Notes: generated by a model not told the origin, from the sequence alone. Positions 24,970 through 41,650 are shown, numbered from the stretch's first letter. The stretch is 53,805 nt of DNA from Bdellovibrionales bacterium (GCA_043764415.1 JAYUKO010000162.1:1-53805), one strand, 5' to 3'. Numbers and translations are program-made.

Positions 24970-27173
24970 AAGACATCATTGATATCGACACCGAAGCCAG
25001 GAACTTTAAAGCCCTCAACCACGTCTTCGCCGTAGACGGTAATTTTTAAGTTATTTGTCTTCGAGAGTCGAAAAAGTGAATTCATAAAGATAACGCCTGA
25101 GGTACGCAATGCGTCCATGTTCCAATGGAGCATAGCCAAGCTTGGCGTGTAGTTGAAGCAGTTGCTGTACCAAAGGGCGATGTGCAGATTTTTATATTTT
25201 TCTAATTCGGCCATCAAAACATCGGCGGAATTCACGATATTCGTATGGATGAAGGTTTTTTTAAGGGGCTTAATCTGGTTGAATGTTTTCAAAAAAAGAG
25301 CTTCGCTTCCCCAAATTTCCAACTCTTGTTCCCATTTGGTGGAAAACTGCTCTCTATCCACAGTCAAAAGTTTATTTTCTAAAATCTCGGGCCGACGATT
25401 TTCAAGATCCCTCCAAAAAGAGGAAAAGTCTTTTCCATCCCAGTGAGCATAGAATTCTTTTTTAATCTCGAGCATACTTTGATTGACGTCAAAATATATA
25501 AACTGGGCGTTTTCATTGAGCTGGTGCCTTTGAGTGAGATGCATATCCATTTGTCCAGCAGGCAAGCCCAAATACAAATCAAATTTTTTGATACGTCCTT
25601 CTTGGTAGGGGGAGCGAGCTTGTTCCGTGTTAAATAAGAAGATTTTCTTATCGAGCCCGTAGGCTTCCATATGAAGTTCTTCAAAAACGTCCTCTTGGTG
25701 ATGGCTGAGCTGGTTCTTTGCTCTCAAAGTTTCCAAAGGTTGCTGAAAGTCGTCAAATCTTTCGATAAGGGCCGCTTGGTTTTGTTCGGGGTATAAAAAC
25801 TGTTTTTTTGCTCGTAGGTCGCTAGGAAAATTGACCACTTCGTAATTTGCACACAAAGCGGACCGTATCCAATTCCAACCAAAAATTTGCGGATTGAAAA
25901 TCTTCTCGCCAGGTCCTTTGCGCAAAAACATTGGCGTGTAATCATCGTGCACATTTTCAGGGCTCCGATCGACCACAGGTAAGTTTTGTGAGTGAGTGGG
26001 GCCTCCAAAATGCGGACGACCCAATTTTTCCCATAATTCTACATTAATAAAAAACGCCTGCGGATGCAGTCCAAACCATCGTTCGCCGCGATCAAGAAGG
26101 TGTCCGACTAAAAAAACATTTGTTGAAAGCGCTTTTAAAAACGTTCGAGCTCGCGAATAGAACTGATCTTTCAAGATTGTCCCTGGCGTACAAACAAACG
26201 CCCACTGAGTGCCCATATCAGAGCAACGAGTCAGTAGATCTGAAAGCTGAACTCCCGAAGTGAGGCGATGGTGTCGATTTGCCTTAAGTCGCATAAAATG
26301 CTCAGTGATATTTGTGCAATGATTAAAAAGCGTAGGGTTTGAAATTTCGGAATTGTATTTCCAAAGGATATTGGCGAAAGCGGTAGGGTCTGATTTTTTT
26401 TCGCTAACAAGCGGAGCTTCCACAGCCAACTGTCGACGCTGACCACTGACACTTTCGGCGATTTTATTATAATATTTAGCGCCATAGCGTCCATGCAGAA
26501 TAAGATGCACGCGGGTTTCTTTCGAAAAGTTCCATACGCCGTGCTGGTTGGAGATATCGACGGCATACCCGCTGCCGGGTTCAAAAGGGACAGTCCCCCA
26601 ATTTTTAAAAACCCAGTAGCATGAGCTGGGCATGTTTAAAGCAATGTTCAGTGGACCTAAAGACTTATTATGGTCATCGCGATCTTGATGGAAGTGAATT
26701 CGACCGCCGGGCTCAAGATACATAAAGCGAACTCTGTAAAACTTCTCGAAATACCCAGTATCCAAAAGCTCCTGCAAAAACCGCTTTGCCTCTGGACATC
26801 GATTGACGATCTCTGTCCACCGATACGGCGTCTCAAGTTCTGATGCGTAGCCATATCGATCAGACGACAGCGTTTTATCTGAGTCAATGCCGTGCAAGCA
26901 CAGGCTCTTCCAACCGTAATTGTCTTTTGAGCGATGGCTCACGGCCTGAGGCTCGAGCGCCAAGGCTTCGGATAACATTTGCTGATGGTCAAAGGCGGGC
27001 AGAGGAAGCTTTAAAAACGGAATGTGCAATTTCTTGTGAAGTTCTTGACCAGAAATTCCAGCGGCAAAAAGCTTTACACGGCCCCTTATAAAGGCCTGTG
27101 TCGTAGAGTTTAGCTTTGAGTAGGTATCCACCACGAATTGTTCGTTGGCGGAATCATTCAGAATTTCTGGCAT
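24963..27173 (-). CDS. multidomain protein: N-terminal AspH/LpxO-type cupin domain + unknown middle + C-terminal Rossmann-like domain
   Basis: 736 aa. 'GWKSLCLHG', 'RFMYLEPGGRIHFHQDRD', 'LNIALNMPSSCYWVF' and 'YAVDISNQHGVWNFSKETRVHLI' are paralogous to ORF 22252-23001. The C-terminal domain is paralogous to ORF 21022-22278. Confidence 0.65.
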   Translation of the reverse strand: MPEILNDSANEQFVVDTYSKLNSTTQAFIRGRVKLFAAGISGQELHKKLHIPFLKLPLPAFDHQQMLSEALALEPQAVSHRSKDNYGWKSLCLHGIDSDKTLSSDRYGYASELETPYRWTEIVNRCPEAKRFLQELLDTGYFEKFYRVRFMYLEPGGRIHFHQDRDDHNKSLGPLNIALNMPSSCYWVFKNWGTVPFEPGSGYAVDISNQHGVWNFSKETRVHLILHGRYGAKYYNKIAESVSGQRRQLAVEAPLVSEKKSDPTAFANILWKYNSEISNPTLFNHCTNITEHFMRLKANRHHRLTSGVQLSDLLTRCSDMGTQWAFVCTPGTILKDQFYSRARTFLKALSTNVFLVGHLLDRGERWFGLHPQAFFINVELWEKLGRPHFGGPTHSQNLPVVDRSPENVHDDYTPMFLRKGPGEKIFNPQIFGWNWIRSALCANYEVVNFPSDLRAKKQFLYPEQNQAALIERFDDFQQPLETLRAKNQLSHHQEDVFEELHMEAYGLDKKIFLFNTEQARSPYQEGRIKKFDLYLGLPAGQMDMHLTQRHQLNENAQFIYFDVNQSMLEIKKEFYAHWDGKDFSSFWRDLENRRPEILENKLLTVDREQFSTKWEQELEIWGSEALFLKTFNQIKPLKKTFIHTNIVNSADVLMAELEKYKNLHIALWYSNCFNYTPSLAMLHWNMDALRTSGVIFMNSLFRLSKTNNLKITVYGEDVVEGFKVPGFGVDINDVFC

Positions 27174-27252
27174 TGACGTCTTCCCCGTGTTTCAGTGAAA
27201 AATAGTAGAGCGATTTTGAAAAAAATGATATCCAAATTTAAGGGGGAAATCC

Positions 27253-28137
27253 TTGCTCAGTCAGTTTTCGTTAAACCCAAACCTGAAGAACCCCTTCGTC
27301 GAGTACGATTTGACTCCCTCAGACATTTTGGCGCCGAGTCGAGATCTGATCGAAAGCTTACAAAATAACTTCGAAGACGGAAAAATTCTTGTCATTGAGG
27401 GGTTGGTTCCAGATTCGTTAGATTACTTTTTGGATCAACCGGCAGTGCAATTTCCCGAATGGGTTCCTCCGGTGGAAGACCACGAAATTTTAAACGACAA
27501 CATCAATGCGACCCACTCCTTTTGGCCGTTTTATCCTGATGAGCCAACGATTCGCCGTTTTCAGCATCACCTGCGGCGCTTCCAGGAGAGTTGGGAGCCG
27601 TTGCAAAAAAACCTGTTCCCTCGCTATGAATATAAAAAGCGCTACTGGAGCTGGCGTATGAATCAAATGGAACTGGGCTACCTTCATCTTGACGTACCAC
27701 CTGTGTATTCTGAGCACCAAATGCGAAGTTTTATGAATTTGAGTCGTAGACCGCGAATTATCGACGTGGGACCTACTTTAGAAAGTCTAATAGCAAAATA
27801 TTATGGCTCCGAAAAACTACATGAGCTAAGTCACCTTAATGCGACAGACTATTTACAGGAAATTAAGAACCGTCTCTTCAAAAAACTAAAGTTCGAGGAC
27901 CAACATCTGCCCCGTCATGTTTTGCGCCTCGCCCCGGGCGCTATTTGGATCAGCCATTCGTCTCTTATCACACACGGAATTGTCTACGGCGAGAAAACTG
28001 TCTGTCTAGAAACACGAATACCGACCGATCAAATTCGTAAAAAAGAACGCTCCTTTAACAGAATTTTAGAAGATGTTAAGCACCAACGAGCTTCGAAGAC
28101 CGAAGATTTTAAGGTGTATGAATCGTTTTTTCGTTAA
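27253..28137 (+). CDS. Fe(II)/2-oxoglutarate dioxygenase-like protein, possibly Kdo-hydroxylase (KdoO) family
   Basis: 294 aa. HxD in 'LGYLHLDVPP' and distal His in 'WISHSSLITHG'. Size and motif spacing fit a facial-triad dioxygenase. TTG start with AGGGGG 7 nt upstream. Confidence 0.4.
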   Translation: MLSQFSLNPNLKNPFVEYDLTPSDILAPSRDLIESLQNNFEDGKILVIEGLVPDSLDYFLDQPAVQFPEWVPPVEDHEILNDNINATHSFWPFYPDEPTIRRFQHHLRRFQESWEPLQKNLFPRYEYKKRYWSWRMNQMELGYLHLDVPPVYSEHQMRSFMNLSRRPRIIDVGPTLESLIAKYYGSEKLHELSHLNATDYLQEIKNRLFKKLKFEDQHLPRHVLRLAPGAIWISHSSLITHGIVYGEKTVCLETRIPTDQIRKKERSFNRILEDVKHQRASKTEDFKVYESFFR

Positions 28138-29374
28138 TTTGAAATAAAGGTGTCAGCTCGGGAACAACCTTGAGCAACGACGTCCCGCGCATTCTGTCGA
28201 GCTCCGTATTAAACTCGCAAAACTGCGAAACTAATAAAGACTTTTTTTCGGAGCTAAAAACTTCTTTTTTCAAACTCGCGCGAATCAACTGTTTTCCCGA
28301 GTCACCCAATAGGCGCCGACCAGAATGGTGGGGGCCCTCAAGGATTCTAGAATTTTCCAGTCTTTGCAGAGCGAGTTCTTTCATTCTCTGCGGTAAAATT
28401 TGAAAGTTAAGGTAAGCTGGACGTACAACAGCATTCGAAAAAGTGATTTCGTCGTGCGGCTGATAGACTTTTTCAAACCAGTCCCAGAGTTCATCAAGCT
28501 TAAATATATTATAAATGGAAACCGCCGCGGTAAACATCACAGTCAGTTGCGGAATTTTGCGAAACTGAAGCAAATTTCTCTCAAGCTCTTCGATTGAAAA
28601 TTTATCGCCGCCGCGGATGTAACGATAAAGCTCTCCCGCGCCGTCGACACTCACGTATAAGTCGATCTGTTTAAAGTGAGACATCAGCTTGAGCAACTGT
28701 GGAGAGACCATGGTGCCGTTGGTAGAGATATCCAAAATAACCTGTGGTGCGATCTGCCATTCCACAAGTTGCTCAAGCACCTTTATTCCTTCCGCTTCGA
28801 GCAAAGGTTCTCCTCCACGAAGGGCCACATACTGTAAATTCTTAAAAAGTTCACGATTGCTAAAGATTTTTAAAATACTTTGCAGCTCGATTTTTTCTGC
28901 TCGCAGACCCTCAGGTCTGTTGAGACGCGAGCCAAATTTTTGCACCAATTCTCGATCTTCGGCAAGCCACGACGTCGACGAAACCGAATTACACATGCGG
29001 CACTTTAAATTGCATTTATTTGAGAGATTTAGATCGAGGTATTGCAGATTTATCTCTCCATCATTTTTTTGTGGCAGTTCTAAATTAAATCTGCGAAGGG
29101 TGTGTTCGAAAAATATCCGTCGAGAATGGCCAAGGGTGCTTTCCTTGGTGGCGCAGTTCACGCAAGCTGTGGCAAATTTTTGCTGCTGCATTTCTGTGCG
29201 CAGGGTTCGAAATTCACCACCAGATAGAATTTCTTCAAGGGACTGGGTTAAAATATTGCCGTAAGATTTTGCGTACTGCGCATCTGGGCCCACATCACCA
29301 TTTGGTTTAACGGACAACGCAAGCCAGGGAGCTAAACAGGGGTGAGAGTTATGATCAAGAGGTGTAATCTTCAA
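28109..29374 (-). CDS. radical SAM protein, N-terminal twitch-like family (paralog 2, degenerate N-motif)
   Basis: 'PCLAPWLALSVKPNGDVGPDA' (CC replaced by DA), 'CVNC', 'CNLKCRMC' and 'LRGGEPLL'. The ORF-track start at 29470 would overlap the amidinotransferase by 116 nt, so I prefer TTG at 29374. The start remains uncertain. Confidence 0.8.
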   Translation of the reverse strand: MKITPLDHNSHPCLAPWLALSVKPNGDVGPDAQYAKSYGNILTQSLEEILSGGEFRTLRTEMQQQKFATACVNCATKESTLGHSRRIFFEHTLRRFNLELPQKNDGEINLQYLDLNLSNKCNLKCRMCNSVSSTSWLAEDRELVQKFGSRLNRPEGLRAEKIELQSILKIFSNRELFKNLQYVALRGGEPLLEAEGIKVLEQLVEWQIAPQVILDISTNGTMVSPQLLKLMSHFKQIDLYVSVDGAGELYRYIRGGDKFSIEELERNLLQFRKIPQLTVMFTAAVSIYNIFKLDELWDWFEKVYQPHDEITFSNAVVRPAYLNFQILPQRMKELALQRLENSRILEGPHHSGRRLLGDSGKQLIRASLKKEVFSSEKKSLLVSQFCEFNTELDRMRGTSLLKVVPELTPLFQINEKTIHTP

Positions 29375-30437
29375 GCCCCCCGGTGCGGCGAATGTCGAGC
29401 GTAACACAATGAATGGCACCATCCCAAAAATACTGATGACGAAAGTTCCAGGGAATGGCTTCGACTCCATGGTGTTTTAATTGGTCGAAAACAGTCTTGT
29501 TGTAGCCATTGGTGATGACACATTTTTCAGAAACACTAAACATATTTACATCAAAAACCGTTTCATCCACGTAACCGATCCATTCTTTAAGCCACTGTTG
29601 AACAAAGTCTTTGTAAAAGCGTTGTTTTTTAATCTTTTGAAAGTATTCAGGAAATGGATTGGGGCTGTTTACCTGAATGATGTCCCACTTGGAGAGGGCT
29701 GCTGGAATATGTTTTGGACTCCAAGTAATTACGAGGCCGGGTTTTAGGAGAGCAATCTTTCCGTCGAGATGACCCGCGCACGGCGCCGCATGAAAACGGT
29801 AAGTGTCTCCCAACTCTTGTTGCAGCCACTTGATTCCGCTGGAAGTGCCTTTTCCTTTTTCGCTCCACTCGCCTTCACCAGGTTGACTGTAAAAAATGTC
29901 TTTCCCACACTTCAAAAGATTCGCGGCATGAAATAGAATTTTTTTATCCTCGAAAAGATCATAAGTCTTTGGGTGTTCGGTAAAAAACGGGGCGGGCATG
30001 GACGTCCAGCGAGCACCTTGGTCAAAATACTCTTTAAAGAGAGAATAGTACGCCCAGTTTTCCAAATAGCGATTGGCGCTCTTTGTGTACGTTTGGATCA
30101 ATTGATTTCCGGCCACGACTACAGTGTCTCTCGGCATCAGCGGATGATTTGGAAAGGTAAAATTAAATAGGTTGAAATCCAGTGTTCTAGCTTCACCATT
30201 CGAGGTTCCCAATTCAAACAAGGTGGATGGGCGCCGAACTTTTACGCCAAAGCTCTCAAATAGCCCAACGAGCTTTTGTAGATCCTCTTCGGTTTCACTC
30301 AGAATGCGATCGATCCCATCACGCAACTCGCTATCGTGGGAGTAAGCAAAGGAACCGGGAGGATACGCTTGGCCGACGAGAACTTCCTCCAGCGGCTGAA
30401 ATTCCGAATAAGTGGAGACGGGGCAGTTCGCGATCAT
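29355..30437 (-). CDS. amidinotransferase (glycine / inosamine-phosphate amidinotransferase family)
   Basis: The N-terminus 'VSTYSEFQPLEEVLVGQAYP' parallels the 'NEWDPLEEVIVG' start of StrB1/AGAT. The C-terminus 'WDGAIHCVTLDIRRTG' carries the catalytic Cys motif. Confidence 0.85.
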   Translation of the reverse strand: MIANCPVSTYSEFQPLEEVLVGQAYPPGSFAYSHDSELRDGIDRILSETEEDLQKLVGLFESFGVKVRRPSTLFELGTSNGEARTLDFNLFNFTFPNHPLMPRDTVVVAGNQLIQTYTKSANRYLENWAYYSLFKEYFDQGARWTSMPAPFFTEHPKTYDLFEDKKILFHAANLLKCGKDIFYSQPGEGEWSEKGKGTSSGIKWLQQELGDTYRFHAAPCAGHLDGKIALLKPGLVITWSPKHIPAALSKWDIIQVNSPNPFPEYFQKIKKQRFYKDFVQQWLKEWIGYVDETVFDVNMFSVSEKCVITNGYNKTVFDQLKHHGVEAIPWNFRHQYFWDGAIHCVTLDIRRTGGLEDYTS

Positions 30438-31032: not shown

Positions 31033-31995
31033 ATGATAAGATCACCAGAACAACGCTTGACCTCGAGCGTTACTGAGCCACTCAACGAGCGCCTCCTTAC
31101 TAAAACAGGTAACGCTGTTTATAACGATGATGTTCGAGTGTTCCTCGGCAAAAATATTGCAAACTGGTTTTCCGACGAAGTGCAGTTTGGCTCCATGGTG
31201 GACACCGAGGGCTATATTTGCGAAATGAAGAAGTGGATTCGTTCAAGCCACGCGTGTTCTGTTCTTGGTCTTGAAGACTTTGAGGTGGCCTGCGTTAGTC
31301 TCGGCGTCACCCAAGCTCTGGATCAATTTCATTATGATATTTTACAAAGTGGGCGTCGCTTGCGCATGTTGCGAGGCGAGTACCCTTACCACCGTGATGT
31401 GCACCCATTCTGCATCGAAAAAGATTTTATTGATGATGCGCCTCTCACTCCAGGGGATGCGGTGATCATCAGTTATCCTTTCAGTGCCAGCGGAAACGAA
31501 CCACCGCGGCTCACTGAAACTCTTGATAGCTGTTTGCGTCTGCAGGTGCCGGTGTTTTTAGATCTGGCCTGGTTTGGAACCTGCGGTGGTCTGGTTTTCG
31601 ATTTGCGGCACCCGGCCATCACCCATGTCGCATTTTCGCTCACCAAAGGTCTGACCTGTGGCAACTATCGTTCAGGTGTTCGATGGACTCGAAAAAAAAC
31701 CGACCTTTCCGCCACAGATCGCTTATTGCTGCAACAGGATTGGAATCACAGCATTCATCTCAATTTAAAGATTGGCCGCGAGTTGATGAAAAAGTTTGGA
31801 CCAGATACCCAGTTTCATAAATATCGAACGGCGCAATTGAAAGTGTGCGAGCGTTTTTCCATAGAACCCAGCCCCTGTGTGCATATTGCCACATCCAAAG
31901 AGGAGCACTGGCGGGATTTTAGTCGCGATGGAGTGATTCAGCGAATTAATTTGCGCGACGCGATTAAGTTGCTGAATCGCACACAAGCTGAATAA
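31033..31995 (+). CDS. PLP-dependent aminotransferase-fold (class I/II-like) protein, short form
   Basis: Motifs in the order expected for fold-type I: 'ISYPFSASGNEP' (cf. NPxNPTG), 'VFLDLAWFG' (Asp) and 'SLTKGLTCGNYRSG' (cf. SxSKxxxxxGxRxG, PLP Lys). Only 320 aa. Confidence 0.45.
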   Translation: MIRSPEQRLTSSVTEPLNERLLTKTGNAVYNDDVRVFLGKNIANWFSDEVQFGSMVDTEGYICEMKKWIRSSHACSVLGLEDFEVACVSLGVTQALDQFHYDILQSGRRLRMLRGEYPYHRDVHPFCIEKDFIDDAPLTPGDAVIISYPFSASGNEPPRLTETLDSCLRLQVPVFLDLAWFGTCGGLVFDLRHPAITHVAFSLTKGLTCGNYRSGVRWTRKKTDLSATDRLLLQQDWNHSIHLNLKIGRELMKKFGPDTQFHKYRTAQLKVCERFSIEPSPCVHIATSKEEHWRDFSRDGVIQRINLRDAIKLLNRTQAE

Positions 31996-33192
31996 ATGAA
32001 AGCCATGCAGGTCACTCGTCAAACCAGCCCCACAATATGTCCGTTACCGTTTATGCATACTTACATCACGGCAAATGGTTCTGCTGTCGCCTGTTGTGAG
32101 TCCCAGGAAAGTATTTTATCGCCGTCAAAAAGCAACTTTCAGTCAATGTGGAACTCGCAGAATTATAAAAATTTGCGCCAAGCTCTTTTGCGCGGCGAAA
32201 AACCCGAACTGTGCCGTAAATGCTGGTCAAACGAAGAGATCGGAATGCCATCCAATCGAGAGGACATGTGGCGCGATCTAGAAACTGGTCTTTTTGGTGA
32301 TCCGAATCTCGCAGTGCACGAGGATTTTTTGGTGAGTGAAACTCCGGCGGCCATCGAAATCAAAACCAATAACCTCTGCAATTTGAAGTGCCGAATGTGC
32401 CATCCCGAAAGCAGTCATCGCGTGGGAGAAGATAAAGAAATCATTGTGAAGTACAGAAAAAACCTACCTTGGTCGCAAACAGTGTTGAGCTCCGGTCAAA
32501 CTGTGGGAGCTCTATTTTCTGAAGGGGATGCATTTTTCAAAAAGTTATCGGTGGTTCAATATTCGGGTGGTGAACCGCTCATCAGCGATGAGCAGCTCGA
32601 ATTGACACAAAAATTAATGCAATTTGAACCTGGGAAAATTCATTTGCGCTACTCAACAAATTTGACACATCTGAGTTATAAGAAAACAAGCTATCCAGAC
32701 ATCTGGAGGAATTTCAAAAAAGTACATGTAAAAGTGAGCATCGATGGCGTGAACGACGTCTACGACTATATTCGTGTTGGTGGTCATTTCGAAAAAGTTG
32801 TGGAAAATATTAAGCGACTGCAAGATTTTCAGCTACCAAACCTGCAGCTGAGTATTGGTTTTACGACTCAAGCGTACAACGTATTCCAGCTGCCAGAATT
32901 CCTCGAGTATTTCGAAAAGATAGTGCCGCGCAACTCGATCACCACCCATCTACTGCATTCACCCAAAATGATGATGGTGGATGTTTTTCCGCCAGCGATT
33001 CGAGAACGTCTGATCCACAAGCTCCAGAGCCGGAGAACCGACATCAACAACGTGATTGCCGTTCTACAAAAGTCTACATCAGAGGCGTCGTATTGGACCG
33101 CACTTTGTAATTATACCCAAGAATTGGAAACCAAATATTCGATCAGTTTCGGCTTCCGTTCTTTGCTCGACAAGTACTTAGCAGGTTATTGA
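31996..33192 (+). CDS. radical SAM protein, N-terminal twitch-like family (paralog 3)
   Basis: 'ICPLPFMHTYITANGSAVACC', 'CRKC', 'CNLKCRMC' and 'YSGGEPLI'. Starts immediately after the upstream stop (TAAATG). Confidence 0.85.
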   Translation: MKAMQVTRQTSPTICPLPFMHTYITANGSAVACCESQESILSPSKSNFQSMWNSQNYKNLRQALLRGEKPELCRKCWSNEEIGMPSNREDMWRDLETGLFGDPNLAVHEDFLVSETPAAIEIKTNNLCNLKCRMCHPESSHRVGEDKEIIVKYRKNLPWSQTVLSSGQTVGALFSEGDAFFKKLSVVQYSGGEPLISDEQLELTQKLMQFEPGKIHLRYSTNLTHLSYKKTSYPDIWRNFKKVHVKVSIDGVNDVYDYIRVGGHFEKVVENIKRLQDFQLPNLQLSIGFTTQAYNVFQLPEFLEYFEKIVPRNSITTHLLHSPKMMMVDVFPPAIRERLIHKLQSRRTDINNVIAVLQKSTSEASYWTALCNYTQELETKYSISFGFRSLLDKYLAGY

Positions 33193-33193
33193 C

Positions 33194-34408
33194 ATGTCGA
33201 AAAATTATTCCTGTCAGTATTTAGAAAAGTCTTTAACTCTCTTGCCCACTTCCGAGGTGCGTCCGTGCTGTCGTTTTGATGTGAGTCGCTATGATGTTAA
33301 AGATTTTACCTGGGATCATAAAACACCCCTCGAGGAATTTTACACAAGCGCGCAATACAAAATGATTCGACAACAAAGCCGAAGCGGCCTGCCCGTGGCC
33401 GGTTGCCATCGTTGCTACCGCGAGGAGGATTTAGGTATCAAAAGCATGCGGCAAAAAGATTTTCCTGGGGATGCCGCGAGTTGCGATGATGAAACCCTAA
33501 AAATTTCTATGATCGAGCTCGGTGTGGGTCGCATTTGTAATTTAAAATGTCGAACCTGTGATCCTTACTTTAGTACAAAGTGGGAGACCGATGCTTTGAT
33601 TGCCAACAAGCCAATCCCCGATAAGGGATTGGATGTGGATCTCGATGCGCTGGACGTGCAATTTTTTCGAAATACTCGATTTTTGAAGATCACTGGCGGT
33701 GAGCCTTTTTATCATTCGGCCTTTGAAACGTTAATTCATCGCCTGGTTCAAGAGGGACTTTCCGCAAACATTGACATCGAAATATTCAGCAACGCGACGA
33801 AATTACCGGACGAGGTGTTTGTCGAAGCCTTAAAAGGTTTTCGCACAGTAACGATGACTCTCAGCATCGATGGTTTAGGAGCTACGAATACGTATCTTCG
33901 CCATCCGAGTCGGTGGAAGGATATCGAAAAGAGCGTCGATTTTTGGCTGGGTCTCAGGGCAAGCCAGATAGCACTCAAAGTCCAATTTGCGGTCACGGTT
34001 TCGGTATTTAATATTTTAAGTCTCTTCGATTTATTAGATTGGCTCTACAAGCTCGAAACAAACGAACCTGGAATTATTATTCAAAATGTGCAGGACCCAA
34101 CTCACTTAAATGTGTCTCATTGGCCGTTGCAAATTCGACAAGCTATTCAGTCGAAATTTTTACAGCAAAAAGAAGCCTTCTTGGAGACTCATGTTGTAAA
34201 TACAACGCTTGTTAAAAGGATCGGGAACATCGAAAAAATGCTAGACTCTGTTATCGAACAAAAAGACGTGAGCGAACAGTTTTGGCGAGAAACCCTTGCA
34301 TTAGATAAAGCCAGGAACGAAACCTTTTCTAAGGTATTCCCAGAGCTTTTTCAAATTGTCTCGAGCTCGCTAAATAAAGAGTTCACCGAGTTCCGGAGCG
34401 GCATTTAA
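33194..34408 (+). CDS. radical SAM protein, N-terminal twitch-like family (paralog 4)
   Basis: 'SCQYLEKSLTLLPTSEVRPCC', 'CHRC', 'CNLKCRTC' and 'ITGGEPFY'. Confidence 0.85.
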   Translation: MSKNYSCQYLEKSLTLLPTSEVRPCCRFDVSRYDVKDFTWDHKTPLEEFYTSAQYKMIRQQSRSGLPVAGCHRCYREEDLGIKSMRQKDFPGDAASCDDETLKISMIELGVGRICNLKCRTCDPYFSTKWETDALIANKPIPDKGLDVDLDALDVQFFRNTRFLKITGGEPFYHSAFETLIHRLVQEGLSANIDIEIFSNATKLPDEVFVEALKGFRTVTMTLSIDGLGATNTYLRHPSRWKDIEKSVDFWLGLRASQIALKVQFAVTVSVFNILSLFDLLDWLYKLETNEPGIIIQNVQDPTHLNVSHWPLQIRQAIQSKFLQQKEAFLETHVVNTTLVKRIGNIEKMLDSVIEQKDVSEQFWRETLALDKARNETFSKVFPELFQIVSSSLNKEFTEFRSGI

Positions 34409-35689
34409 AAGACGTGTCTGTCGTTTTCGATCGAGCCTGTCGGTGTAGTCCCGTAGGGCAGGAAGAAGGTGCGACCAATCCCTGCCTTGCATATGTTGCA
34501 GGTGATCTTTTATATGATTCTGAATATTGTTGAGAGTCGCCTGGGGCCATTTCTTTTCGGAAAGCATCTTTTCCTGATAATCGAGAATTTCCGACTCGGC
34601 CTGATTTTTTAAATTTTGCGGAAGGACCTGCGCATTTAAAAACGCCGGCGCGGTGACTCTGTGGGAGTGGAACCGAACACCTCTGTTGGTAAAGTAGTCG
34701 ATAATTTTGGGGAGTTGAAAAACATTGTAGACCTGAATCGTGCAGGCCACGGCAATCTCTTCAAAGACAATATCGCGTCGTGATTGGACTTCATCAAGGT
34801 TCTTCTCAATGGTGGAAAACTGCGCACCCGTGCGGATGTAATTATAAACATCGTGAATGCCATCAATGCTTGCGTAAATCGAAACCGATTTAAAGTTCTT
34901 CCAATAGTCAAAAACCGAGACCCCTTTAAAATTTAACGTGGTTAAATTTGTACTATATTTTAAGCGGATGTGGGGTGCGCGTTCCGAAAGTAGGTCTAAA
35001 ATGCGGTAATGCAGGGGATCCATCAGTGGTTCTCCACCAGCAAATTCTATCAGATCCAATGACTCTGCCATTTTTGCAAAATCAATCCACCATTGTTCTT
35101 GATCCTGAAAACCAGAAATGAGTGGTTTTTTAGTTACATTTTGTTTCTCAGCCGACGTGTAGGCCCACTGGTTGTATTTTTTCATGAGATCAGAAACTTC
35201 ATTCCATTCCGAGGCCCAGGAACTTGAGTCCACGGGGTGACACATTCGACACTTGAGGTTACACAAATTACTCAGTTTGAGCTCGATGGTTTTAGGCAGG
35301 TAGGGAACATGTCCAGAGGGATCCACTTGATTTAGCAAATGCGAATAATTGGACCAACGACTTCCTGGAAATGTGCGCAAAGCTCGCTGTCGCATGGAGC
35401 GTGTGCCCATACTTTCCAGTGTCCAGCAGTCTTGGCACGCCTCGGGCTTTTCTCCGTTCAAAAGCTTCTTTCTAATTTCCTTGTACTGCGGGCTGTTCCA
35501 TAACTCCACAGCCGAAGAGTCCTGCACATTGGAGATGGGTTCACTGCGGCAGCACAGTTTAAAGGTGCCCTCTGTTTTAGTAGCAAGGTGCGTGAAGGGA
35601 TAAATGCAAAAGGTGGCGCTTTTTTCAGCGTCCTTCAAAACCGAATTCACTTCTGTAACAGTGGCGTTTGGTATTTGCAGCATCCCCAA
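34370..35689 (-). CDS. radical SAM protein, N-terminal twitch-like family (paralog 5)
   Basis: 'FCIYPFTHLATKTEGTFKLCC', 'CQDC', 'CNLKCRMC' and 'FAGGEPLM'. TTG at 35689 or ATG at 35683. Confidence 0.85.
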   Translation of the reverse strand: MGMLQIPNATVTEVNSVLKDAEKSATFCIYPFTHLATKTEGTFKLCCRSEPISNVQDSSAVELWNSPQYKEIRKKLLNGEKPEACQDCWTLESMGTRSMRQRALRTFPGSRWSNYSHLLNQVDPSGHVPYLPKTIELKLSNLCNLKCRMCHPVDSSSWASEWNEVSDLMKKYNQWAYTSAEKQNVTKKPLISGFQDQEQWWIDFAKMAESLDLIEFAGGEPLMDPLHYRILDLLSERAPHIRLKYSTNLTTLNFKGVSVFDYWKNFKSVSIYASIDGIHDVYNYIRTGAQFSTIEKNLDEVQSRRDIVFEEIAVACTIQVYNVFQLPKIIDYFTNRGVRFHSHRVTAPAFLNAQVLPQNLKNQAESEILDYQEKMLSEKKWPQATLNNIQNHIKDHLQHMQGRDWSHLLPALRDYTDRLDRKRQTRLLNAAPELGELFI

Positions 35690-35783: not shown

Positions 35784-36809
35784 ATGAAAAAGCATTTAAT
35801 GCGAGCGTTTCTGTTCTTGGTATCATTGGCCTTAGCCATTGCTTTGGTCGAAAGCTATCTCAGAGTTTTTGGTAAAGATAGATTTGATATCGCGATGCAC
35901 TTAAAGCGTCCTTCACAGTTCGAAGACTTGCGTGTTCATTTCGAAAAAAAAGCACACCATAAATTTGACTTTATTCACGAGGGCAAACTTATTTATCGGC
36001 AGGAGATCGAAACGGATGAGTGGGGGCGACGAAAAACCTATGGACCCAGTTTTTCAAAAACACTCATCATGTTCTTTGGCTGCTCCTATACCTTTGGGTC
36101 GGGCCTTCAGCAGCACGAAACTTTACCATATCAATTTAGCAAAACGACGCAAATTGATTCTCTGAATTACGCCTTGCCGGCATATGGTCCCCATGGCCTG
36201 CTTCGCCAAGCAGAAGTTTTGCCCTTTGGTGAGCAAATTTCTTCGACCTACTCGTCGGTCTATGCGGCCTATATATTTTATGGCTTTCAATGGCGCCGAG
36301 CCACGGGAGGAATTGGGTGGATTGCAAAAATGGGAGGAAATCACCCGTTTTATAAATTGGATTCAAAAACCAATACCATTTCCTATCAAGGTCGTTTTTC
36401 AGACGCGCAACCCATTAAGATGTGGTTTATAAAATCGTTTAACAAGTTTCATTTGCTGCATTACCTACCTCAGATTTGGGATCACGAAAGTGCAACAAAG
36501 GCTGATCAGCTTCTTTTTTGCGGAATGATGAACAAAACCCAGGAACTTTTACGAAAAAAAATAGGCAGTCCCTTTAAAGGCTTAAAAATAATACATCCTT
36601 ATTTTGATCACGACAAACTATGGAATGAATTTTTATTGGGCGCAAGGAAATGTTTTTCCTCTGAGGTCGAGCTGGTAGAATTTAAAATGCCAGGGAGCAG
36701 AGAGAAATGGGCCATCGACAGTGTTTTGGAGGACCATCCCAATATTCATTTCAATAAGCTGTTGAGCGATCTTCTTGCGCGAAGATGGCAGGAACAACTA
36801 GAAAAATAA
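35784..36809 (+). CDS. membrane-anchored SGNH/GDSL-like hydrolase/acyltransferase family protein (copy 1)
   Basis: N-terminal TM plus 'ESYLRVF'. Block-I-like 'FFGCSYTFGSGLQQHETLP'. C-terminal 'EDHPNIHFNKLLSDLL' (Asp/His block). Confidence 0.55.
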   Translation: MKKHLMRAFLFLVSLALAIALVESYLRVFGKDRFDIAMHLKRPSQFEDLRVHFEKKAHHKFDFIHEGKLIYRQEIETDEWGRRKTYGPSFSKTLIMFFGCSYTFGSGLQQHETLPYQFSKTTQIDSLNYALPAYGPHGLLRQAEVLPFGEQISSTYSSVYAAYIFYGFQWRRATGGIGWIAKMGGNHPFYKLDSKTNTISYQGRFSDAQPIKMWFIKSFNKFHLLHYLPQIWDHESATKADQLLFCGMMNKTQELLRKKIGSPFKGLKIIHPYFDHDKLWNEFLLGARKCFSSEVELVEFKMPGSREKWAIDSVLEDHPNIHFNKLLSDLLARRWQEQLEK

Positions 36810-37536
36810 ATAAAATTAACTGAAGGTGCATTTGGAAGTCGATCCCCAAAATAAAGGCTGTTCCCAGATGAAAAAAGATAAGCAGCCACCCCCAAAAAAA
36901 ATCGAACTTGGGCATAAGTAAAATGATAATTGACGAAAGCTGCATCCCGATGAGTGCCAGCCAAAGAATTCCCGAAAGATAATAATGATGTTGTAAAAAT
37001 ATCATAAGTTCTGTGTTTGCGATGACATCCTCACAGTAGGTGCGAGCGATATGGCTGGGCAGCGTAGAGGAAACATCTTGCCACCAGTGGTCGGCATGAT
37101 TCAAAAAAAGGCCTCTCAGTTTCCACAAGCCAGAGTTGCAATAAATACTTAAGCAGAAAGCACGCAGACATAAAAAAATCTGTCCAGAATTTAAAACCGA
37201 AGTTGGTATTATCAAAATAAAGTGCGCCGCCAGCCAGCCAAAGTTATTATGGCTAAAGTCGCCAAACGAATACGTCGAGTAGATCAAAAGCCACCAAGCA
37301 TAGGCAGTCACCGCACGAAAAATGAGGGGTCTCGGAAAAAAAGCAGTTATGAGCTGCAGGCTCAGTGCAAAAAAATAAAAAAGATTTAAATTCCATTCAC
37401 CGGACCCTGTCATTTGGGCTTTTTCATAAATTTGCGTGCGTAAAGTTAGCAAAACTAAAAACCCTGAGGTGTAAAATATCGACAAGCAACGCTCGTGCAA
37501 ATTTTTGGTTTTAAAATTTAAAAATTTCTTCAACAT
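36751..37536 (-). CDS. HTTM-like polytopic membrane protein, copy 2
   Basis: 261 aa. 'SFGDFSHNNFGWLAAHFIL', 'YCNSGLWKL' and 'FFHLGTAFILGIDF' match motifs of ORF 23505-24503. Confidence 0.5.
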   Translation of the reverse strand: MLKKFLNFKTKNLHERCLSIFYTSGFLVLLTLRTQIYEKAQMTGSGEWNLNLFYFFALSLQLITAFFPRPLIFRAVTAYAWWLLIYSTYSFGDFSHNNFGWLAAHFILIIPTSVLNSGQIFLCLRAFCLSIYCNSGLWKLRGLFLNHADHWWQDVSSTLPSHIARTYCEDVIANTELMIFLQHHYYLSGILWLALIGMQLSSIIILLMPKFDFFWGWLLIFFHLGTAFILGIDFQMHLQLILFIFLVVPAIFAQEDRSTAY

Positions 37537-37936
37537 TTTCGTATTTCTCTTTTTGATTTAGAATGATATATTTTGCGAGTGGTAAATTTATCTTATAGAT
37601 TTTTAACGGCATAAGACTCTGGTTCTGAAGGTGGGAAAATAGAAAATCTTTTTCGGCGACGGGTTCCCCTCGGGAAACTTGCGACGCCAATCTTTGCAGG
37701 TTGTACCAAGTCTCCGATTTTTTTAAGGACGAAGAACTGTAGAGCTCGCGTCCGTTGGGGCTCTGTACTTCTAAATCGTAAAAATTCCAATGAACGGAAC
37801 TTTTGGAAAATAAAGACCAATCAAAGAATGGCCCCCACTCTGAGGTATTTTTCCACGGCAGAACAACTTGTGCCATGAAAACAAAAATTATAAAAGTTAA
37901 TACAGGAGAAATTTGTCGAAAGTTCCAATTTTTCAT
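37511..37936 (-). CDS. small single-TM protein preceding HTTM-like gene, copy 2
   Basis: 141 aa with an N-terminal TM helix (VLTFIIFVFMAQVV). 26-nt overlap with the downstream HTTM-like gene. Same position and size class as ORF 24487-24969. Confidence 0.45.
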   Translation of the reverse strand: MKNWNFRQISPVLTFIIFVFMAQVVLPWKNTSEWGPFFDWSLFSKSSVHWNFYDLEVQSPNGRELYSSSSLKKSETWYNLQRLASQVSRGEPVAEKDFLFSHLQNQSLMPLKIYKINLPLAKYIILNQKEKYENVEEIFKF

Positions 37937-39180
37937 TTCCGATTTACTTTCTCTGCAGTTAGTTGAGCTAAGTGCTCCAATAGCAACGTATGGCCCCTAT
38001 CGTTGAGGTGACAACAACCATCTCTAAAAACGGATTCTGTTGTATTTTTAAAGAGTGACGCAAGGTTAACAATTGGCAAACCAGCTTGTTGAAGCTCCCG
38101 TGCTTTCTGATGCAATAATAAGTAGTTGGTTTTTCTTTCTCTGAGTTCATTGGGATCAATTTTGGCTAAAAAGCCCAGCTCTTCTGTAGTCAATTTTTTT
38201 TCAACAAGATAAGGCGCGGGCTGTAGGGCGTAAATGGAGGTCACATTCATCGATCGAGCCATGGTTTCTTGTTGGCGAATAAATTTAGACCACATCTGTA
38301 TGTTGGTCTCTTTTAATTCAGACGAATTTCCAGATTTCCATAGCCCGTCCTTAGGTTTGTCAATTTCTTGCAGGATGGCAAAAATTCTTTGCCAGCGATT
38401 CAAAATTTGTGTTTTGAGAATTGTGCTTACAACAGAAATCCCTGCGCCGAAGTTTTGAAGTGTTTTCTTTTTTTGGGAAATTTCTAAATAGTCGGTAAAA
38501 AGATGCAGCTGTTTCTTTTTTGTCTCGTAGATATCTTGCGAAAAATAAAGACCTGAAACCAAGGATGTTGGAAAATAGGGCGGATAAACGGACGAAGCTC
38601 TGGGATGTGCTTCATTGACACCTTCGATATTGATCGAAACATCGAGCTTATCCAAAAAAAACGAAGCTATGACAAACTGTTGAGGCTGTCTGTAGCCGGA
38701 ATACGCAAAATTGAGGACTCGAATTTTTTTAGAACGTTTGAGCTGTCGATTCAGATTTTTTTTAAAAACACTATTTTTTTCCTCAAAGTAGTGAGCTTGA
38801 GTCGCCACAGAACCGCCAAAAATCCCCACGTAGAGAGTATCGGGTTGTTTTTCAAGGTTCCAAAGTTCGGGTCGTTCCACAAAGCCGTAAACGAGGGTTT
38901 CTAAAGATTGATTTTCTTGAGTTAGCGGACGGGAATACCCGAAAAAAGGATGTGGATACTTAGGACTGAGGAGATTCAAATTCGTAGCGTCTCCCAATTT
39001 ATCAAAAAGCTCCTCCGCCGGACTGCCTTCGTTCAGATCACTCAGTAGCAGCTGTAACTTTTTGTCCAGTCGAGGCTCTAAAAAAAACCGACAAAAAAAC
39101 TCGGCCACAAAAGCACAAAGACATAACGAAAGACAAAATAAAAAGATCTTACGACTTAACGATCGCACACCGTGGTCCAT
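37933..39180 (-). CDS. membrane-anchored SGNH/GDSL- or DltD-like protein (copy 2)
   Basis: N-terminal TM plus 'AEFFCRFF', 'YVGIFGGSVATQ' and C-terminal 'FRDGCCHLNDRGHTLLLEHLA' (D..H block). Confidence 0.5.
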   Translation of the reverse strand: MDHGVRSLSRKIFLFCLSLCLCAFVAEFFCRFFLEPRLDKKLQLLLSDLNEGSPAEELFDKLGDATNLNLLSPKYPHPFFGYSRPLTQENQSLETLVYGFVERPELWNLEKQPDTLYVGIFGGSVATQAHYFEEKNSVFKKNLNRQLKRSKKIRVLNFAYSGYRQPQQFVIASFFLDKLDVSINIEGVNEAHPRASSVYPPYFPTSLVSGLYFSQDIYETKKKQLHLFTDYLEISQKKKTLQNFGAGISVVSTILKTQILNRWQRIFAILQEIDKPKDGLWKSGNSSELKETNIQMWSKFIRQQETMARSMNVTSIYALQPAPYLVEKKLTTEELGFLAKIDPNELRERKTNYLLLHQKARELQQAGLPIVNLASLFKNTTESVFRDGCCHLNDRGHTLLLEHLAQLTAEKVNRK

Positions 39181-39263: not shown

Positions 39264-40478
39264 ATGGCGACTCAGCAGTCTTCTACATTTTGTTCCGTGC
39301 CCTGGACGCAGCTTGCGACAAACTCGTCTGGTTACTATCGAGTCTGTTGCAACGCGCTGCCCGTTAAGAATCTTGTTCGCGATGCGCAGGGAAAAGTTTT
39401 AACAGTATACAAAAACACCGTAGAAGAAGCATGGAGTGCACCAACGTACCTTCAGATTCGCGAAGAAATGCAGTCCTCCGTTCGTCCAGAAATGTGCACC
39501 CGTTGTTTTCGCGAAGAGGATGCCGGTGTTGAAAGTGCGCGACAAAGATGGAACCGCCGCTGGCCCGAGACTTCGCTTCAGCAGGACGCAGAAGGGGCAT
39601 TCCCTTTAGTTAAGTACGTGGATTTGCGCTTAGGAAATTTGTGTAACTTAAAGTGCCGAATGTGCAATCCCTACTCCAGCAGTAAGTGGGTCGAAGAGTG
39701 GAACTCGGTGGTAGGAACGAAAGGCTTAGTGCCAGAAAGCTCGCTGTCTCCAGGAGAAGCGCAGCGCCTGCAAAAAATGGATTGGCCCGAGGACGAAAAA
39801 ACATGGGCCCATTTACTGCCAATTCTCAACACCGTCGAAGAAATATACCTTACTGGAGGGGAGCCTTTTTTATCTTTAAAGCAAACGGACCTGCTGCAAA
39901 AATTGGTTGATAGCGGGCGTTCTAGCGAAGTGGTTATTAAATACAATACCAACGTGACGGTCTATCCGGAAAAAATCATCGCTCTTTGGGCGAAATTCAA
40001 GACGGTTCGGCTCAATTTAAGTATTGATGGGGTGGGCGCTACCAATGACTATATCCGTTTTCCTGCAAAATGGGCCTCTGTAGAAAAGAACTTGCAAGGG
40101 TTTTTTGAATTAAAAAAAGCGGGCGTTCCCTTGGAAATCAGTGTGCATACAACAGTGCAAATCTATAATATTTTAGAGCTTCCAAAAATTATTCAATACT
40201 TTAGAGACAACTACACTCTGACTCCATATTTTAACATTCTCAATCACCCAGCGTGTTTAAATATACGCTCCATGCCGCAGTCCTTAAAAGACGTGGCGCT
40301 GCGAAGACTGCAGCCTTGGGCCAATGAAAAGGGAGTGGGCGAAGTAATTTCGTATATGCTAGCCGAAGATTGGTCGAAGTCCTACTGGCCAGAGTTTATT
40401 AGATACACGTCGCAACTCGATGCAAACCGCAGTCAAAAATATATGGTCAGTGACGTAGATTTACAGCTTGTGGACTGA
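39264..40478 (+). CDS. radical SAM protein, N-terminal twitch-like family (paralog 6)
   Basis: 'FCSVPWTQLATNSSGYYRVCC', 'CTRC', 'CNLKCRMC' and 'LTGGEPFL'. Confidence 0.85.
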   Translation: MATQQSSTFCSVPWTQLATNSSGYYRVCCNALPVKNLVRDAQGKVLTVYKNTVEEAWSAPTYLQIREEMQSSVRPEMCTRCFREEDAGVESARQRWNRRWPETSLQQDAEGAFPLVKYVDLRLGNLCNLKCRMCNPYSSSKWVEEWNSVVGTKGLVPESSLSPGEAQRLQKMDWPEDEKTWAHLLPILNTVEEIYLTGGEPFLSLKQTDLLQKLVDSGRSSEVVIKYNTNVTVYPEKIIALWAKFKTVRLNLSIDGVGATNDYIRFPAKWASVEKNLQGFFELKKAGVPLEISVHTTVQIYNILELPKIIQYFRDNYTLTPYFNILNHPACLNIRSMPQSLKDVALRRLQPWANEKGVGEVISYMLAEDWSKSYWPEFIRYTSQLDANRSQKYMVSDVDLQLVD

Positions 40479-40504: not shown

Positions 40505-41650
40505 ATGGCTAATCACTGGTCCTCTTATGATTTCACCAAAATCCCCTTTGCAGATATTGAATCGGTAGGGCAGAGAACCCTCCTTTATCGAGATTTGTTT
40601 TGCGTTAGTTGGCTGCTGGGTCGTTTTTGCAATTATAAATGCTCTTATTGTTGGCCCTACGCTCGCTCCGACACAAGAGATCACCGTCCCACAGAATTGG
40701 TTTTAAAAACGCTCAGCGAAATCAAGCGTCAGGCACGGGAACGAAATTTTAATTCTTTTCATTTTTCGTTCAGTGGCGGCGAACCAACACTTCACCCGGG
40801 ATATCTGGAAATATTAAAAACATATTCAGAGGATCAGCCGAATTGTAATTATCAATCACTGCACATGACGAGTAATGTTAGTGCTGGTTTGGGTTACTTT
40901 AAAAAATATGCCGAAGTTACCAAAAATATAAACCGCGTGAGTATCACAGCCAGTTATCACAAAGAGATGACAACCAAAGAGCCTTTTGCAGAAAAATTAA
41001 TCTTCTTACAAGAGCAAGACATCAACGTCACCATCAACATGGTCATGGTTCCTGAGCGCTTTGAGCTTTTGTGGGAAGAGGCTCTCTATTTTCACGAGCA
41101 GGGTATTAACGTTACCCTCAAGCCGCAAAGCAATCCAACGGCTACGGCGGTAGTTTCAGGATATTCTGATGAGATGTTAAAACGTTTACGCAACGGAATG
41201 CCACAAAGGGATTACACGACAAAACGGTTAGAGTCGAAAATGAAAACATCGCAAAGACCAAAGCCGCGTCTCGCAGCGCTGCCAGAAAAAGATGAAACTG
41301 GCGATGATATTCCTCAGATCATGCAAGTGGAGTTTAATGATAAACTGGGCAAGAAGTGGTTTATGGACCAAGCCGAACGCTTTAACGCCTTTAATTTTAA
41401 TCAATTCCTTGGCTGGGAATGTAGCGCGGGTTATCGCAGTATTATCATTCGTGAGCCTGATGGCGCAATTAAAAGAAGTTACAGCTGTAACGACAAGCCG
41501 CTTGGCTTTATTGATAGTGGATTCGAACTTTTTCCAACGGCAAAGCCATGTGTAACTAAGAGCTGCGTAAGTAGTGCGGACAGTAAAATTCCAAAACGTA
41601 AAGCGGGGTCCAAGTGGCCTCTATGGCCTGGGGACACCACGAGTGTATAA
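40505..41650 (+). CDS. radical SAM protein with C-terminal twitch/SPASM-like domain (type B, copy 1)
   Basis: 'CNYKCSYC', 'FSGGEPTL' and C-terminal 'GWECSAGYRSIIIREPDGAIKRSYSC...PCVTKSC'. Paralogous to ORF 48890-49978. Confidence 0.8.
   Translation: MANHWSSYDFTKIPFADIESVGQRTLLYRDLFCVSWLLGRFCNYKCSYCWPYARSDTRDHRPTELVLKTLSEIKRQARERNFNSFHFSFSGGEPTLHPGYLEILKTYSEDQPNCNYQSLHMTSNVSAGLGYFKKYAEVTKNINRVSITASYHKEMTTKEPFAEKLIFLQEQDINVTINMVMVPERFELLWEEALYFHEQGINVTLKPQSNPTATAVVSGYSDEMLKRLRNGMPQRDYTTKRLESKMKTSQRPKPRLAALPEKDETGDDIPQIMQVEFNDKLGKKWFMDQAERFNAFNFNQFLGWECSAGYRSIIIREPDGAIKRSYSCNDKPLGFIDSGFELFPTAKPCVTKSCVSSADSKIPKRKAGSKWPLWPGDTTSV

Follow-up and report, generated by a model that had tools for sequence, protein, structure and literature searches.

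A 53,805-nucleotide contig of a predatory Bdellovibrionales bacterium (JAYUKO010000162.1, called the window hereafter, meaning the whole stretch of DNA that was analysed) encodes eight paralogous radical S-adenosylmethionine (SAM) proteins, all of which are full-length members of the NCBIfam family NF033640 ("N_Twi_rSAM: twitch domain-containing radical SAM protein"). Judged by their sequences, these proteins carry a true twitch domain that precedes the radical SAM barrel, and the module to which they belong is present on hundreds of tailed-phage contigs, with the same accessory families as in the window. A preliminary description of this DNA, made from the sequence alone, had pointed to an NCBI family of radical SAM proteins with an N-terminal twitch; that family exists and is NF033640. 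The permuted architecture has already been catalogued by NCBI, database homologs carry the family's name, and the eight copies are new members of a known, uncharacterised family. As for their chemistry, the reading favoured here, with a probability of about 0.4 and weighed below against its alternatives, is that they oxidise several positions of a sugar-like surface scaffold in a BtrN-like radical reaction.

Eight full-length members of NF033640

The hidden Markov model (HMM) of NF033640 matches all eight open reading frames (ORFs) from end to end, covering about positions 1-397 of the 398 in the profile with scores of 234-431 bits and E-values of 2e-69 to 5e-129, far beyond chance and above the curated NCBI cutoff of 170 bits for the whole-protein score. 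The ORFs were confirmed at the coordinates given below and their mutual alignment spans the full length, as the preliminary description had it. An HMM built from the eight copies themselves finds exactly eight matches in the window at E<1e-10. The copies, three of which are adjacent, are as follows.

31996-33192, plus strand: N_Twi_rSAM paralog, 398 aa; NF033640 287 bits; SPASM at residues 15-77, Radical_SAM at 124-288
33194-34408, plus strand: N_Twi_rSAM paralog, 404 aa; NF033640 252 bits; Ser in place of Gly in the hairpin motif
34370-35689, minus strand: N_Twi_rSAM paralog, 439 aa; NF033640 377 bits; phage orthologs up to 43% identical
19706-20950, minus strand: N_Twi_rSAM paralog, 414 aa; NF033640 319 bits; ortholog in locus L043 49% identical
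28109-29374, minus strand: N_Twi_rSAM paralog, 421 aa (ORF to 29470); NF033640 257 bits; Asp in place of the second twitch Cys
39264-40478, plus strand: N_Twi_rSAM paralog, 404 aa; NF033640 349 bits; phage orthologs up to 48% identical
46212-47630, minus strand: N_Twi_rSAM paralog, 472 aa; NF033640 431 bits; phage orthologs up to 59% identical; the most conserved type
50032-51162, plus strand: N_Twi_rSAM paralog, 376 aa (ORF from 49939); NF033640 235 bits; no close ortholog in the sampled loci

The features of the radical SAM superfamily, namely the C-x3-C-x2-C loop, GGE and a match to PF04055 (33-52 bits, with a gathering cutoff of 29.5), are present in every copy, and the loop, which follows the first barrel strand, is by its sequence the canonical [4Fe-4S]/SAM site together with the GGE motif. 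Of the motifs in the preliminary description, the CxxC recurs in eight of eight, followed there by SxR, as does the core CNLKC(R/I)(M/T)C; the GGEP motif ascribed to all of them holds for seven, 46212-47630 having GGES, while GGE is common to the eight. In 31996-33192 the core reads C128-x3-C132-x2-C135, and the twitch cysteines lie at residues 15, 33, 73 and 76. Start codons are uncertain for three copies, whose ORFs reach 29470, 47687 and 49939. The closest public contig to the window is JANPLN010000015.1, with an amino-acid identity of 86-96%. The public gene call for the 50032-51162 gene (L001:2687-3748, 353 aa) begins at an internal Met and drops the first twitch Cys, and by such a miscall automated annotation can hide the N-terminal domain.

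A twitch domain ahead of the barrel

The placement of the twitch before the barrel, which had been proposed from the cysteine pattern, is borne out by two kinds of profile comparison. Six of the eight copies have a match to the Pfam SPASM model (PF13186) at residues ~7-98, in each case N-terminal to PF04055, and the two copies lacking such a match align to the same columns. When a profile of the N-terminal ~100 residues is compared with the PDB, the sole significant relative is the C-terminal twitch of BtrN (4m7s, residues 164-236, E 8e-4), which aligns with ~75 of them; the first and second Cys, with the hairpin Gly between them, and the CxxC stand in register with BtrN Cys 169, 187, 232 and 235 (numbering counted from the printed alignment). 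An AlphaFold2 model of 31996-33192, computed from a 125-sequence alignment, is confident over the N-terminal domain and the barrel (predicted local distance difference test, pLDDT, 94.3; predicted template modelling score, pTM, 0.91); in it residues 21-31 form a hairpin, and a helix begins at the CxxC.

The idea was said at the outset to fail if the N-terminal cysteines were not conserved in wider homologs. They are conserved: among 185 non-identical homologs from 78 genomic loci and several phyla, the first twitch Cys is kept in 183, the second ligand is Cys in 181 and Asp in the remaining four, the CxxC is kept in all 185, and the three core cysteines are kept in 184-185. The second Cys of the 'CC' pair is kept in 167. 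The motif C-x12-(G/S)-x4-CC, earlier described for each window copy, accordingly stands in seven of them; 28109-29374 reads 'CLAPWLALSVKPNGDVGPDA', with Asp-Ala for Cys-Cys. The four Asp sequences, 28109-29374 and its closest relatives in other genomes (L003:6120-7514, L016:247-1497 and L043:13640-14839), have 'GPDA' where the others have 'xxCC', and the substitution may give the 28109 type (types are named here after the first coordinate of the window gene) an Asp-ligated or open-site auxiliary cluster.

A twitch domain, such as those of BtrN, MoaA and SkfB, is marked by a C-x9-15-G-x4-C hairpin and later Cys residues, which serve one auxiliary cluster. Seven of the eight copies have C-x12-(G/S)-x4-C and a CxxC, and no further conserved Cys is found. 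A SPASM domain, with its seven or eight Cys including C-x2-C-x5-C-x3-C, does not describe the proteins, as the only four conserved cysteines of this kind lie N-terminal to the barrel and none is conserved after it; with four cysteines in the domain, one auxiliary cluster (twitch) is to be expected and not two (SPASM). The domain would consist of a beta-hairpin bearing C-x12-G-x4-C and of helices bearing the CxxC, which together offer four ligands for a predicted second [4Fe-4S] cluster, making each copy a predicted two-cluster radical SAM enzyme.

Size of the family and age of the copies

NF033640 is a large family. Among 1.84 billion cluster representatives it has 7,812 hits at E<=1e-30, each standing for a separate cluster at 50% identity, and 18,355 hits at E<=1e-10. 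Arrays of several copies are typical of it, with 2-10 copies per 21 kb in many loci, including those of Gammaproteobacteria and Porticoccaceae, and in ~30 proteins from the databases two or three N_Twi_rSAM domains are fused in tandem. Literature searches (N-terminal twitch, NF033640, Bdellovibrio radical SAM) found no paper on the family, and a PDB sequence search found no solved structure of any member or close relative.

The window copies are 27-33% identical to one another, whereas for seven of them the genomes of other Bdellovibrionota contain nearer relatives, with identities of 35-77%. The 46212-47630 gene has orthologs 66-85% identical across Bdellovibrionaceae and Halobacteriovoraceae, and the closest sampled relatives of five of the eight copies (35-54% identity) are co-located in a single Pseudobdellovibrionaceae locus, L043. 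Recent local duplication was accordingly rejected, since orthologs elsewhere are closer than any window paralog for seven copies; 50032-51162 is without a closer relative in the sampled loci. The alternative between local duplication and assembly of old lineages, which the preliminary description had left to be settled, is decided for these seven by identity comparison with other genomes, and by this measure the eight copies are anciently diverged lineages. The earlier conjecture of sequential or combinatorial chemistry on one scaffold would fit the ancient divergence, the co-location in L043 and the tandem fusions.

Phage loci with the same module

At least 591 confirmed N_Twi_rSAM relatives came from a scan of IMG/VR. 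Their loci have 2-10 copies per 21 kb, and the contigs, of 29-41% GC, reach a length of 364 kb. Among the viral loci are L084-L162 from IMG/VR and the cultured Ralstonia jumbo phage RsoM2USA (L163:10109-17713). The phage flanks match PHROGs for virion structural and tail proteins, endolysin, thymidylate synthase and endonuclease V, and a search of BFVD gave ~20 full-length structural matches (TM-score 0.7-0.8) from 'uncultured Caudovirales phage', with weaker ones in the Vibrio phages KVP40 and phi-pp2. Clear phage orthologs exist for three window paralogs, with identities of at most 59% for 46212-47630, 48% for 39264-40478 and 43% for 34370-35689. The cultured phages that tblastn brought up were RsoM2USA, two Vibrio phages and one marine single-cell virus, and no others. 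The RsoM2USA protein gp349 is a family member amid three genes of the 47749 type, a methyltransferase-fold partner listed below, and the block gp347-355 adjoins virion proteins confirmed by mass spectrometry (PMC8504454).

Clustering of all neighbouring ORFs in the sampled viral and bacterial loci gave the following counts for the accessory families, in which PLP stands for pyridoxal 5'-phosphate.

Other radical SAM proteins: 80 viral loci, 27 bacterial loci
47749-type methyltransferase fold: 61 viral loci, 11 bacterial loci
Hydroxylase-type oxygenase: 44 viral loci, 11 bacterial loci
PLP-like protein: 18 viral loci, 11 bacterial loci
Amidinotransferase: 14 viral loci, 5 bacterial loci
Kdo-hydroxylase-like protein: 10 viral loci, 4 bacterial loci
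Carbamoyltransferase: 3 viral loci, 4 bacterial loci

In phage and bacterial loci alike the family is co-inherited with the PLP-like protein, the amidinotransferase and the carbamoyltransferase. The phage modules also carry a QueC-like PP-loop ATPase (frequently), many methyltransferase-fold proteins and small 2-oxoglutarate (2OG) oxygenases. The cultured cyanophage S-SCSM2R, a Synechococcus phage reported to have an aminotransferase, a radical SAM protein and an amidinotransferase (PMC12801897), was dropped as support, its amidinotransferase region being without N_Twi_rSAM. As a separate observation, this phage (L164, 213353-214246 and neighbours) has a related amidinotransferase beside kdsA, kdsB, a glycosyltransferase and two 2OG oxygenases, a context that hints at ulosonic acids as a substrate class for the amidinotransferase.

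The surrounding gene cluster

The tailoring cluster around the eight copies spans ~16-51 kb of the window and includes the following genes.

47749-48912, plus strand: partner in which an N-terminal helical domain precedes a class I SAM-methyltransferase fold (AlphaFold2 pLDDT 95.3); divergent from 46212-47630
31033-31995, plus strand: PLP-like partner with an invariant Asp177 and Lys205 in 'FSLxK'; directly upstream of the three adjacent paralogs
29355-30437, minus strand: amidinotransferase of the StrB1/SxtG type (PDB 1bwd, E 2.6e-35; 6u1r, E 1.6e-32)
44042-45859, minus strand: carbamoyltransferase (PF02543 and PF16861)
43896-44045, minus strand: DUF5989 ORF, 49 aa, after the carbamoyltransferase; DUF5989 is annotated on the matching contig
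40505-41650, plus strand: radical SAM protein of another family (PF04055)
41574-42719, plus strand: radical SAM protein of another family (PF04055)
48890-49978, minus strand: radical SAM protein of another family (PF04055)
22252-23001, minus strand: Asp/Arg-hydroxylase-type 2OG oxygenase (Pfam PF05118)
24963-27173, minus strand: protein with an Asp/Arg-hydroxylase-type 2OG oxygenase at its N-terminus (Pfam PF05118)
21022-22278, plus strand: ORF in the same BLAST cluster as 22252-23001 and 24963-27173
27253-28137, plus strand: Kdo-hydroxylase-like protein (Pfam PF11004)
16169-17002, minus strand: SAM methyltransferase at the left edge of the cluster (Pfam)
17289-19703, minus strand: 804-aa multi-pass membrane protein with a methyltransferase/spermidine-synthase-like domain (Pfam)

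The 47749-48912 protein has no Pfam or NCBIfam match. With Foldseek its model is nearest to SgvM, Fur6, PsoF, NodS and TehB, the closest structure being SgvM, a metal-dependent alpha-keto-acid C-methyltransferase, and C316, H318, H348 and C351, which are invariant across 89 homologs, may form a putative metal site. The three radical SAM proteins of other families match NF033640 in the core alone, at ~20-38 bits, and their top NCBIfam matches lie far below cutoffs; 40505-41650 and 41574-42719 overlap by 77 bases as listed, and the second start is probably further downstream. The oxygenase block from 21022 to 28137 is interspersed with membrane proteins and unassigned ORFs, and most accessory ORFs of the window have no Pfam or NCBIfam match. 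A prophage origin of the cluster is unsupported, there being no phage structural genes and the flanks being housekeeping genes; the GC fraction of the cluster (0.41-0.47) lies only a little under that of the biotin region (0.47-0.50).

Several further ORFs of the window were noted in passing. Three, 35784-36809 (plus strand), 42719-43885 (plus strand) and 37933-39180 (minus strand), each have an N-terminal membrane anchor, and the first two carry 'GCSxxFGxGL'; the single NCBIfam match among them is a weak one, of 35784-36809 to the SGNH/GDSL esterase family of Leptospira LA_2486 (E 0.0014), and the three may be candidate Cys-nucleophile SGNH-like acyl- or esterases. Both 23505-24503 and 36751-37536, on the minus strand, encode multi-pass membrane proteins without a family match, each followed by a small unassigned ORF. 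In the left flank, 7516-11578 (plus strand) holds a biotin operon, bioB-bioF and then a 654-aa ORF that from its translation reads as a BioD-BioA fusion, and between ribD and bioB lies 6065-7477 (plus strand, 470 aa), with a PP-loop-like 'SGGADSRLL' and no Pfam match at E<=0.01. In the right flank, 51595-53103 (minus strand) encodes a GH114 glycoside hydrolase whose N-terminus resembles a signal peptide and whose linker is rich in Pro, and is adjoined by a MafB19/Bd3614-type deaminase.

Fusions and neighbours in other genomes

Fused proteins name several partners of the family. Six 46212-type orthologs of 713-744 aa (P0041, P0045 and four others) carry a 47749-type domain as their N-terminal ~230 residues, at 48-51% identity, and in P0368 a 24963-type protein, with its hydroxylase-type 2OG oxygenase, is joined to two N_Twi_rSAM domains. 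In Zetaproteobacteria, L024:6094-8658 unites N_Twi_rSAM with a Wzt O-antigen ABC-exporter ATPase, including the carbohydrate-binding C-terminal domain of the latter, and the cyanobacterial L067:1376-6196 combines a sulfotransferase, N_Twi_rSAM and a class-III aminotransferase. The family stands among GT2, GT4 and WbsX glycosyltransferases both in Bdellovibrio sp. HCB2-146 and in other bacteria. HTTM-domain membrane proteins were also seen in six related bacterial loci (for example L054:3281-4621).

Proposed function and its alternatives

BtrN-like oxidation of a sugar-like surface scaffold would proceed by abstraction of a substrate hydrogen by the 5'-deoxyadenosyl radical, with the fully ligated auxiliary cluster accepting the electron; by analogy with BtrN and anSME, the net result would be a two-electron oxidation, most simply from CH-OH to C=O. 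The cluster is taken to be closed because it has four Cys ligands, as in these two dehydrogenases, whose four-Cys closed auxiliary clusters Grell, Goldman and Drennan are said to have described in 2015. Each paralog might have its own position or intermediate of one sugar-like scaffold (of glycan, ulosonic-acid or cyclitol type), since one enzyme per position or intermediate fits eight old, co-inherited and sometimes fused paralogs. The PLP aminotransferase-like protein would then convert a carbonyl to an amine and the amidinotransferase the amine to a guanidine, and the carbamoyl-, methyl- and sulfotransferases and 2OG hydroxylases could tailor other positions. The product would probably be a heavily tailored surface glycoconjugate, of the cell in Bdellovibrionota and of the virion or the infected host in phages; a surface glycan is suggested because the Wzt fusion and the glycosyltransferase neighbours point there, and the place of radical SAM cassettes beside tail-fibre and LPS-glycosyltransferase (lipopolysaccharide) genes in pelagimyophages (PMC7029224) would agree with it. 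A bolder and unlikely extension is that N_Twi_rSAM arrays are central to a tailoring module that is conserved and moves horizontally (several radical SAM and 2OG oxygenase families, the metal-site methyltransferase, the PLP enzyme, amidino- and carbamoyltransferases), shared by T4-like and jumbo phages and predatory Bdellovibrionota, and that it builds an undescribed, heavily oxidised, aminated and guanidinylated surface structure, which these attackers of Gram-negative cells would use for host or prey recognition or for self-protection.

Several results weigh against such an oxidation of a surface sugar. Pfam scans found no glycosyltransferase or nucleotide-sugar enzyme in the window cluster, and none occurs among the 144 nearest neighbours in phage loci. 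The 143 neighbours counted by Pfam in non-Bdellovibrionota loci form a mixed context without a dominant partner, and in Paenibacillus and Eubacterium ketosynthases and AMP-binding enzymes are among the neighbours. That the 46212 type is conserved at up to 85% is more in keeping with a small, universal metabolite than with a glycan that varies. The 31033-31995 protein, on whose amination step the scheme draws, is apparently a fold-type-I PLP enzyme by a weak PDB profile match (aminotransferase 3if2, E 0.005) that is aligned at the PLP lysine. With Foldseek against the PDB, the N_Twi_rSAM model matches generic radical SAM cores only, at TM-scores of at most 0.41 (SkfB at the top, together with GDGT-MAS, BlsE, anSME, viperin, MoaA, AprD4 and DesII), and literature and PDB searches yielded no substrate, product or activity for any NF033640 member.

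Unlikely, and yet the best placed of the alternatives, is that the copies are protein or peptide maturases, which would introduce cross-links, epimerisations or side-chain oxidations into a ribosomal product (a RiPP, which is a peptide made by the ribosome and modified after translation, or a structural or fibre protein), the Asp/Asn-hydroxylase-type oxygenases and the methyltransferases acting on the same polypeptide. Most characterised SPASM/twitch enzymes act on peptides, and PF05118 is chiefly known for protein beta-hydroxylation. The strongest secondary NCBIfam matches of the copies, all far below cutoffs, are to W_rSAM_matur, PapB, WgkB and YhhB, and SkfB heads the Foldseek matches. The mix of B12-radical SAM, radical SAM, 2OG oxygenase and methyltransferase genes recalls proteusin clusters. 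No RiPP-recognition element was detected, the NCBIfam and Pfam scans showing the twitch and core domains only and the N-terminus being the twitch itself, and the tight packing of the window cluster leaves, by gene spacing, no obvious precursor ORF, though a distant or unrecognised substrate gene may exist. Proximity to structural proteins speaks on both sides, as the RsoM2USA module adjoins its confirmed virion proteins and one Bdellovibrio locus adjoins a 1959-aa Peptidase_S74 fibre gene, whereas such fibre-gene adjacency was rejected as a general feature for want of recurrence in the other sampled loci. The amidinotransferase and the carbamoyltransferase, and the fusions with an aminotransferase and with Wzt, point instead to small-molecule or sugar chemistry.

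Less probable again is another chemistry on the same sugar-like substrate, with the copies acting as radical epimerases, dehydratases or C-C bond-forming enzymes. Epimerases and the diol dehydratase AprD4 also have twitch-type auxiliary clusters, AprD4 appearing with BlsE and DesII among the Foldseek matches, and the Asp that replaces a cluster ligand in one related set could open a coordination site. Against this, 181 of 185 members conserve four Cys, as would suit a closed cluster that relays electrons, and the aminotransferase and amidinotransferase partners need a carbonyl intermediate.

The commonness of the family in tailed phages brings up the modification of nucleotides or nucleic acids, in which a hypermodified base or nucleotide would shield phage, and possibly predator, DNA from nucleases. 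This is improbable. The QueC-like PP-loop ATPase, the many methyltransferase-fold proteins and the small 2OG oxygenases of the phage modules would suit it, as would the conservation of the 46212 type by fitting a universal small substrate, but the QueC match is weak and under the Pfam cutoff, no transglycosylase, DNA-binding or nucleotide-kinase partner was found in the scanned phage neighbours, and the bacterial clusters have membrane proteins and glycosyltransferases, one member being fused to an O-antigen exporter. Tailoring of lipids or lipid A, with acyl or isoprenoid chains in envelope lipids as the targets of radical C-H chemistry, is no more probable, for although the window has matches to PF05118 and PF11004 (the former including LpxO and the latter being KdoO, both of which act on Kdo2-lipid A), GDGT-MAS/Tes is among the nearest sequence and structure matches, Firmicute contexts contain ketosynthases, an AMP-binding enzyme and carrier-protein domains, and HTTM and other membrane proteins occur in bacterial loci, the structural likeness is confined to the generic barrel, the phage modules are without lipid-synthesis genes, and amidino-, carbamoyl- and aminotransferases are not lipid-tail enzymes.

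Significance

NF033640 is a large family without known chemistry, and few radical SAM families are as common as it is in uncultured tailed phages. What is new here is not a kind of enzyme; it is the ancient divergence of the paralogs, the module common to tailed phages, and the fusions that name its partners. The co-inherited or fused partners, namely the methyltransferase-fold protein, the hydroxylase-type 2OG oxygenase, the PLP-like protein, the amidinotransferase and Wzt, provide handles on the family, the most conserved pair being the 46212 and 47749 types and the cultured system being RsoM2USA gp347-355. One member solved would annotate thousands of genes and show what an N-terminal twitch means for substrate access.

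Comparison with known systems

At the level of the family nothing distinguishes the window copies from NF033640, which has the same domain order and is an annotation label only. Radical SAM cassettes in tailed phages have been reported before and never explained: a single marine T4-like phage genome has 12 unexplained radical SAM genes (Nishimura 2017, PMC5332604), and pelagimyophages carry radical SAM cassettes in a hypervariable 'host recognition cluster' with tail fibres and LPS-type (lipopolysaccharide-type) glycosyltransferases (Zaragoza-Solas 2020, PMC7029224). The phage loci described here are alike in make-up and in their T4-like flanks; those papers report the cassette genes only and do not name their radical SAM family.

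Among characterised enzymes, BtrN, the 2-deoxy-scyllo-inosamine dehydrogenase of butirosin (PDB 4M7S/4M7T), is likewise a two-cluster radical SAM enzyme, and its twitch is the one that matches the N-terminal domain. In BtrN this twitch is C-terminal to the barrel, whereas it is N-terminal in the window copies; BtrN has ~250 aa against the 376-472 aa found here, which include a ~150-aa family-specific C-terminal region, and its barrel has only generic similarity to theirs. Because domain order and size differ, the eight copies are not filed in the BtrN family. In aminocyclitol pathways an aminotransferase and a StrB1-type amidinotransferase accompany the enzyme, as the PLP-like protein and the amidinotransferase do in the window. 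The anSME and other SPASM enzymes offer radical dehydrogenation with auxiliary clusters as electron relay, and are linked to the copies by the PF13186 match of the N-terminal domain and by the Foldseek match to anSME; their SPASM domains hold two auxiliary clusters through seven or eight Cys, C-terminal to the barrel, in contrast to the four N-terminal Cys and the one expected cluster here, where moreover no peptide substrate is evident. MoaA (GTP 3',8-cyclase), a weak match to the window copies by HMM and by structure, also has a single auxiliary cluster, which is C-terminal, is held by three Cys and binds GTP at its open iron, whereas in the window copies four Cys lie N-terminal to the barrel.

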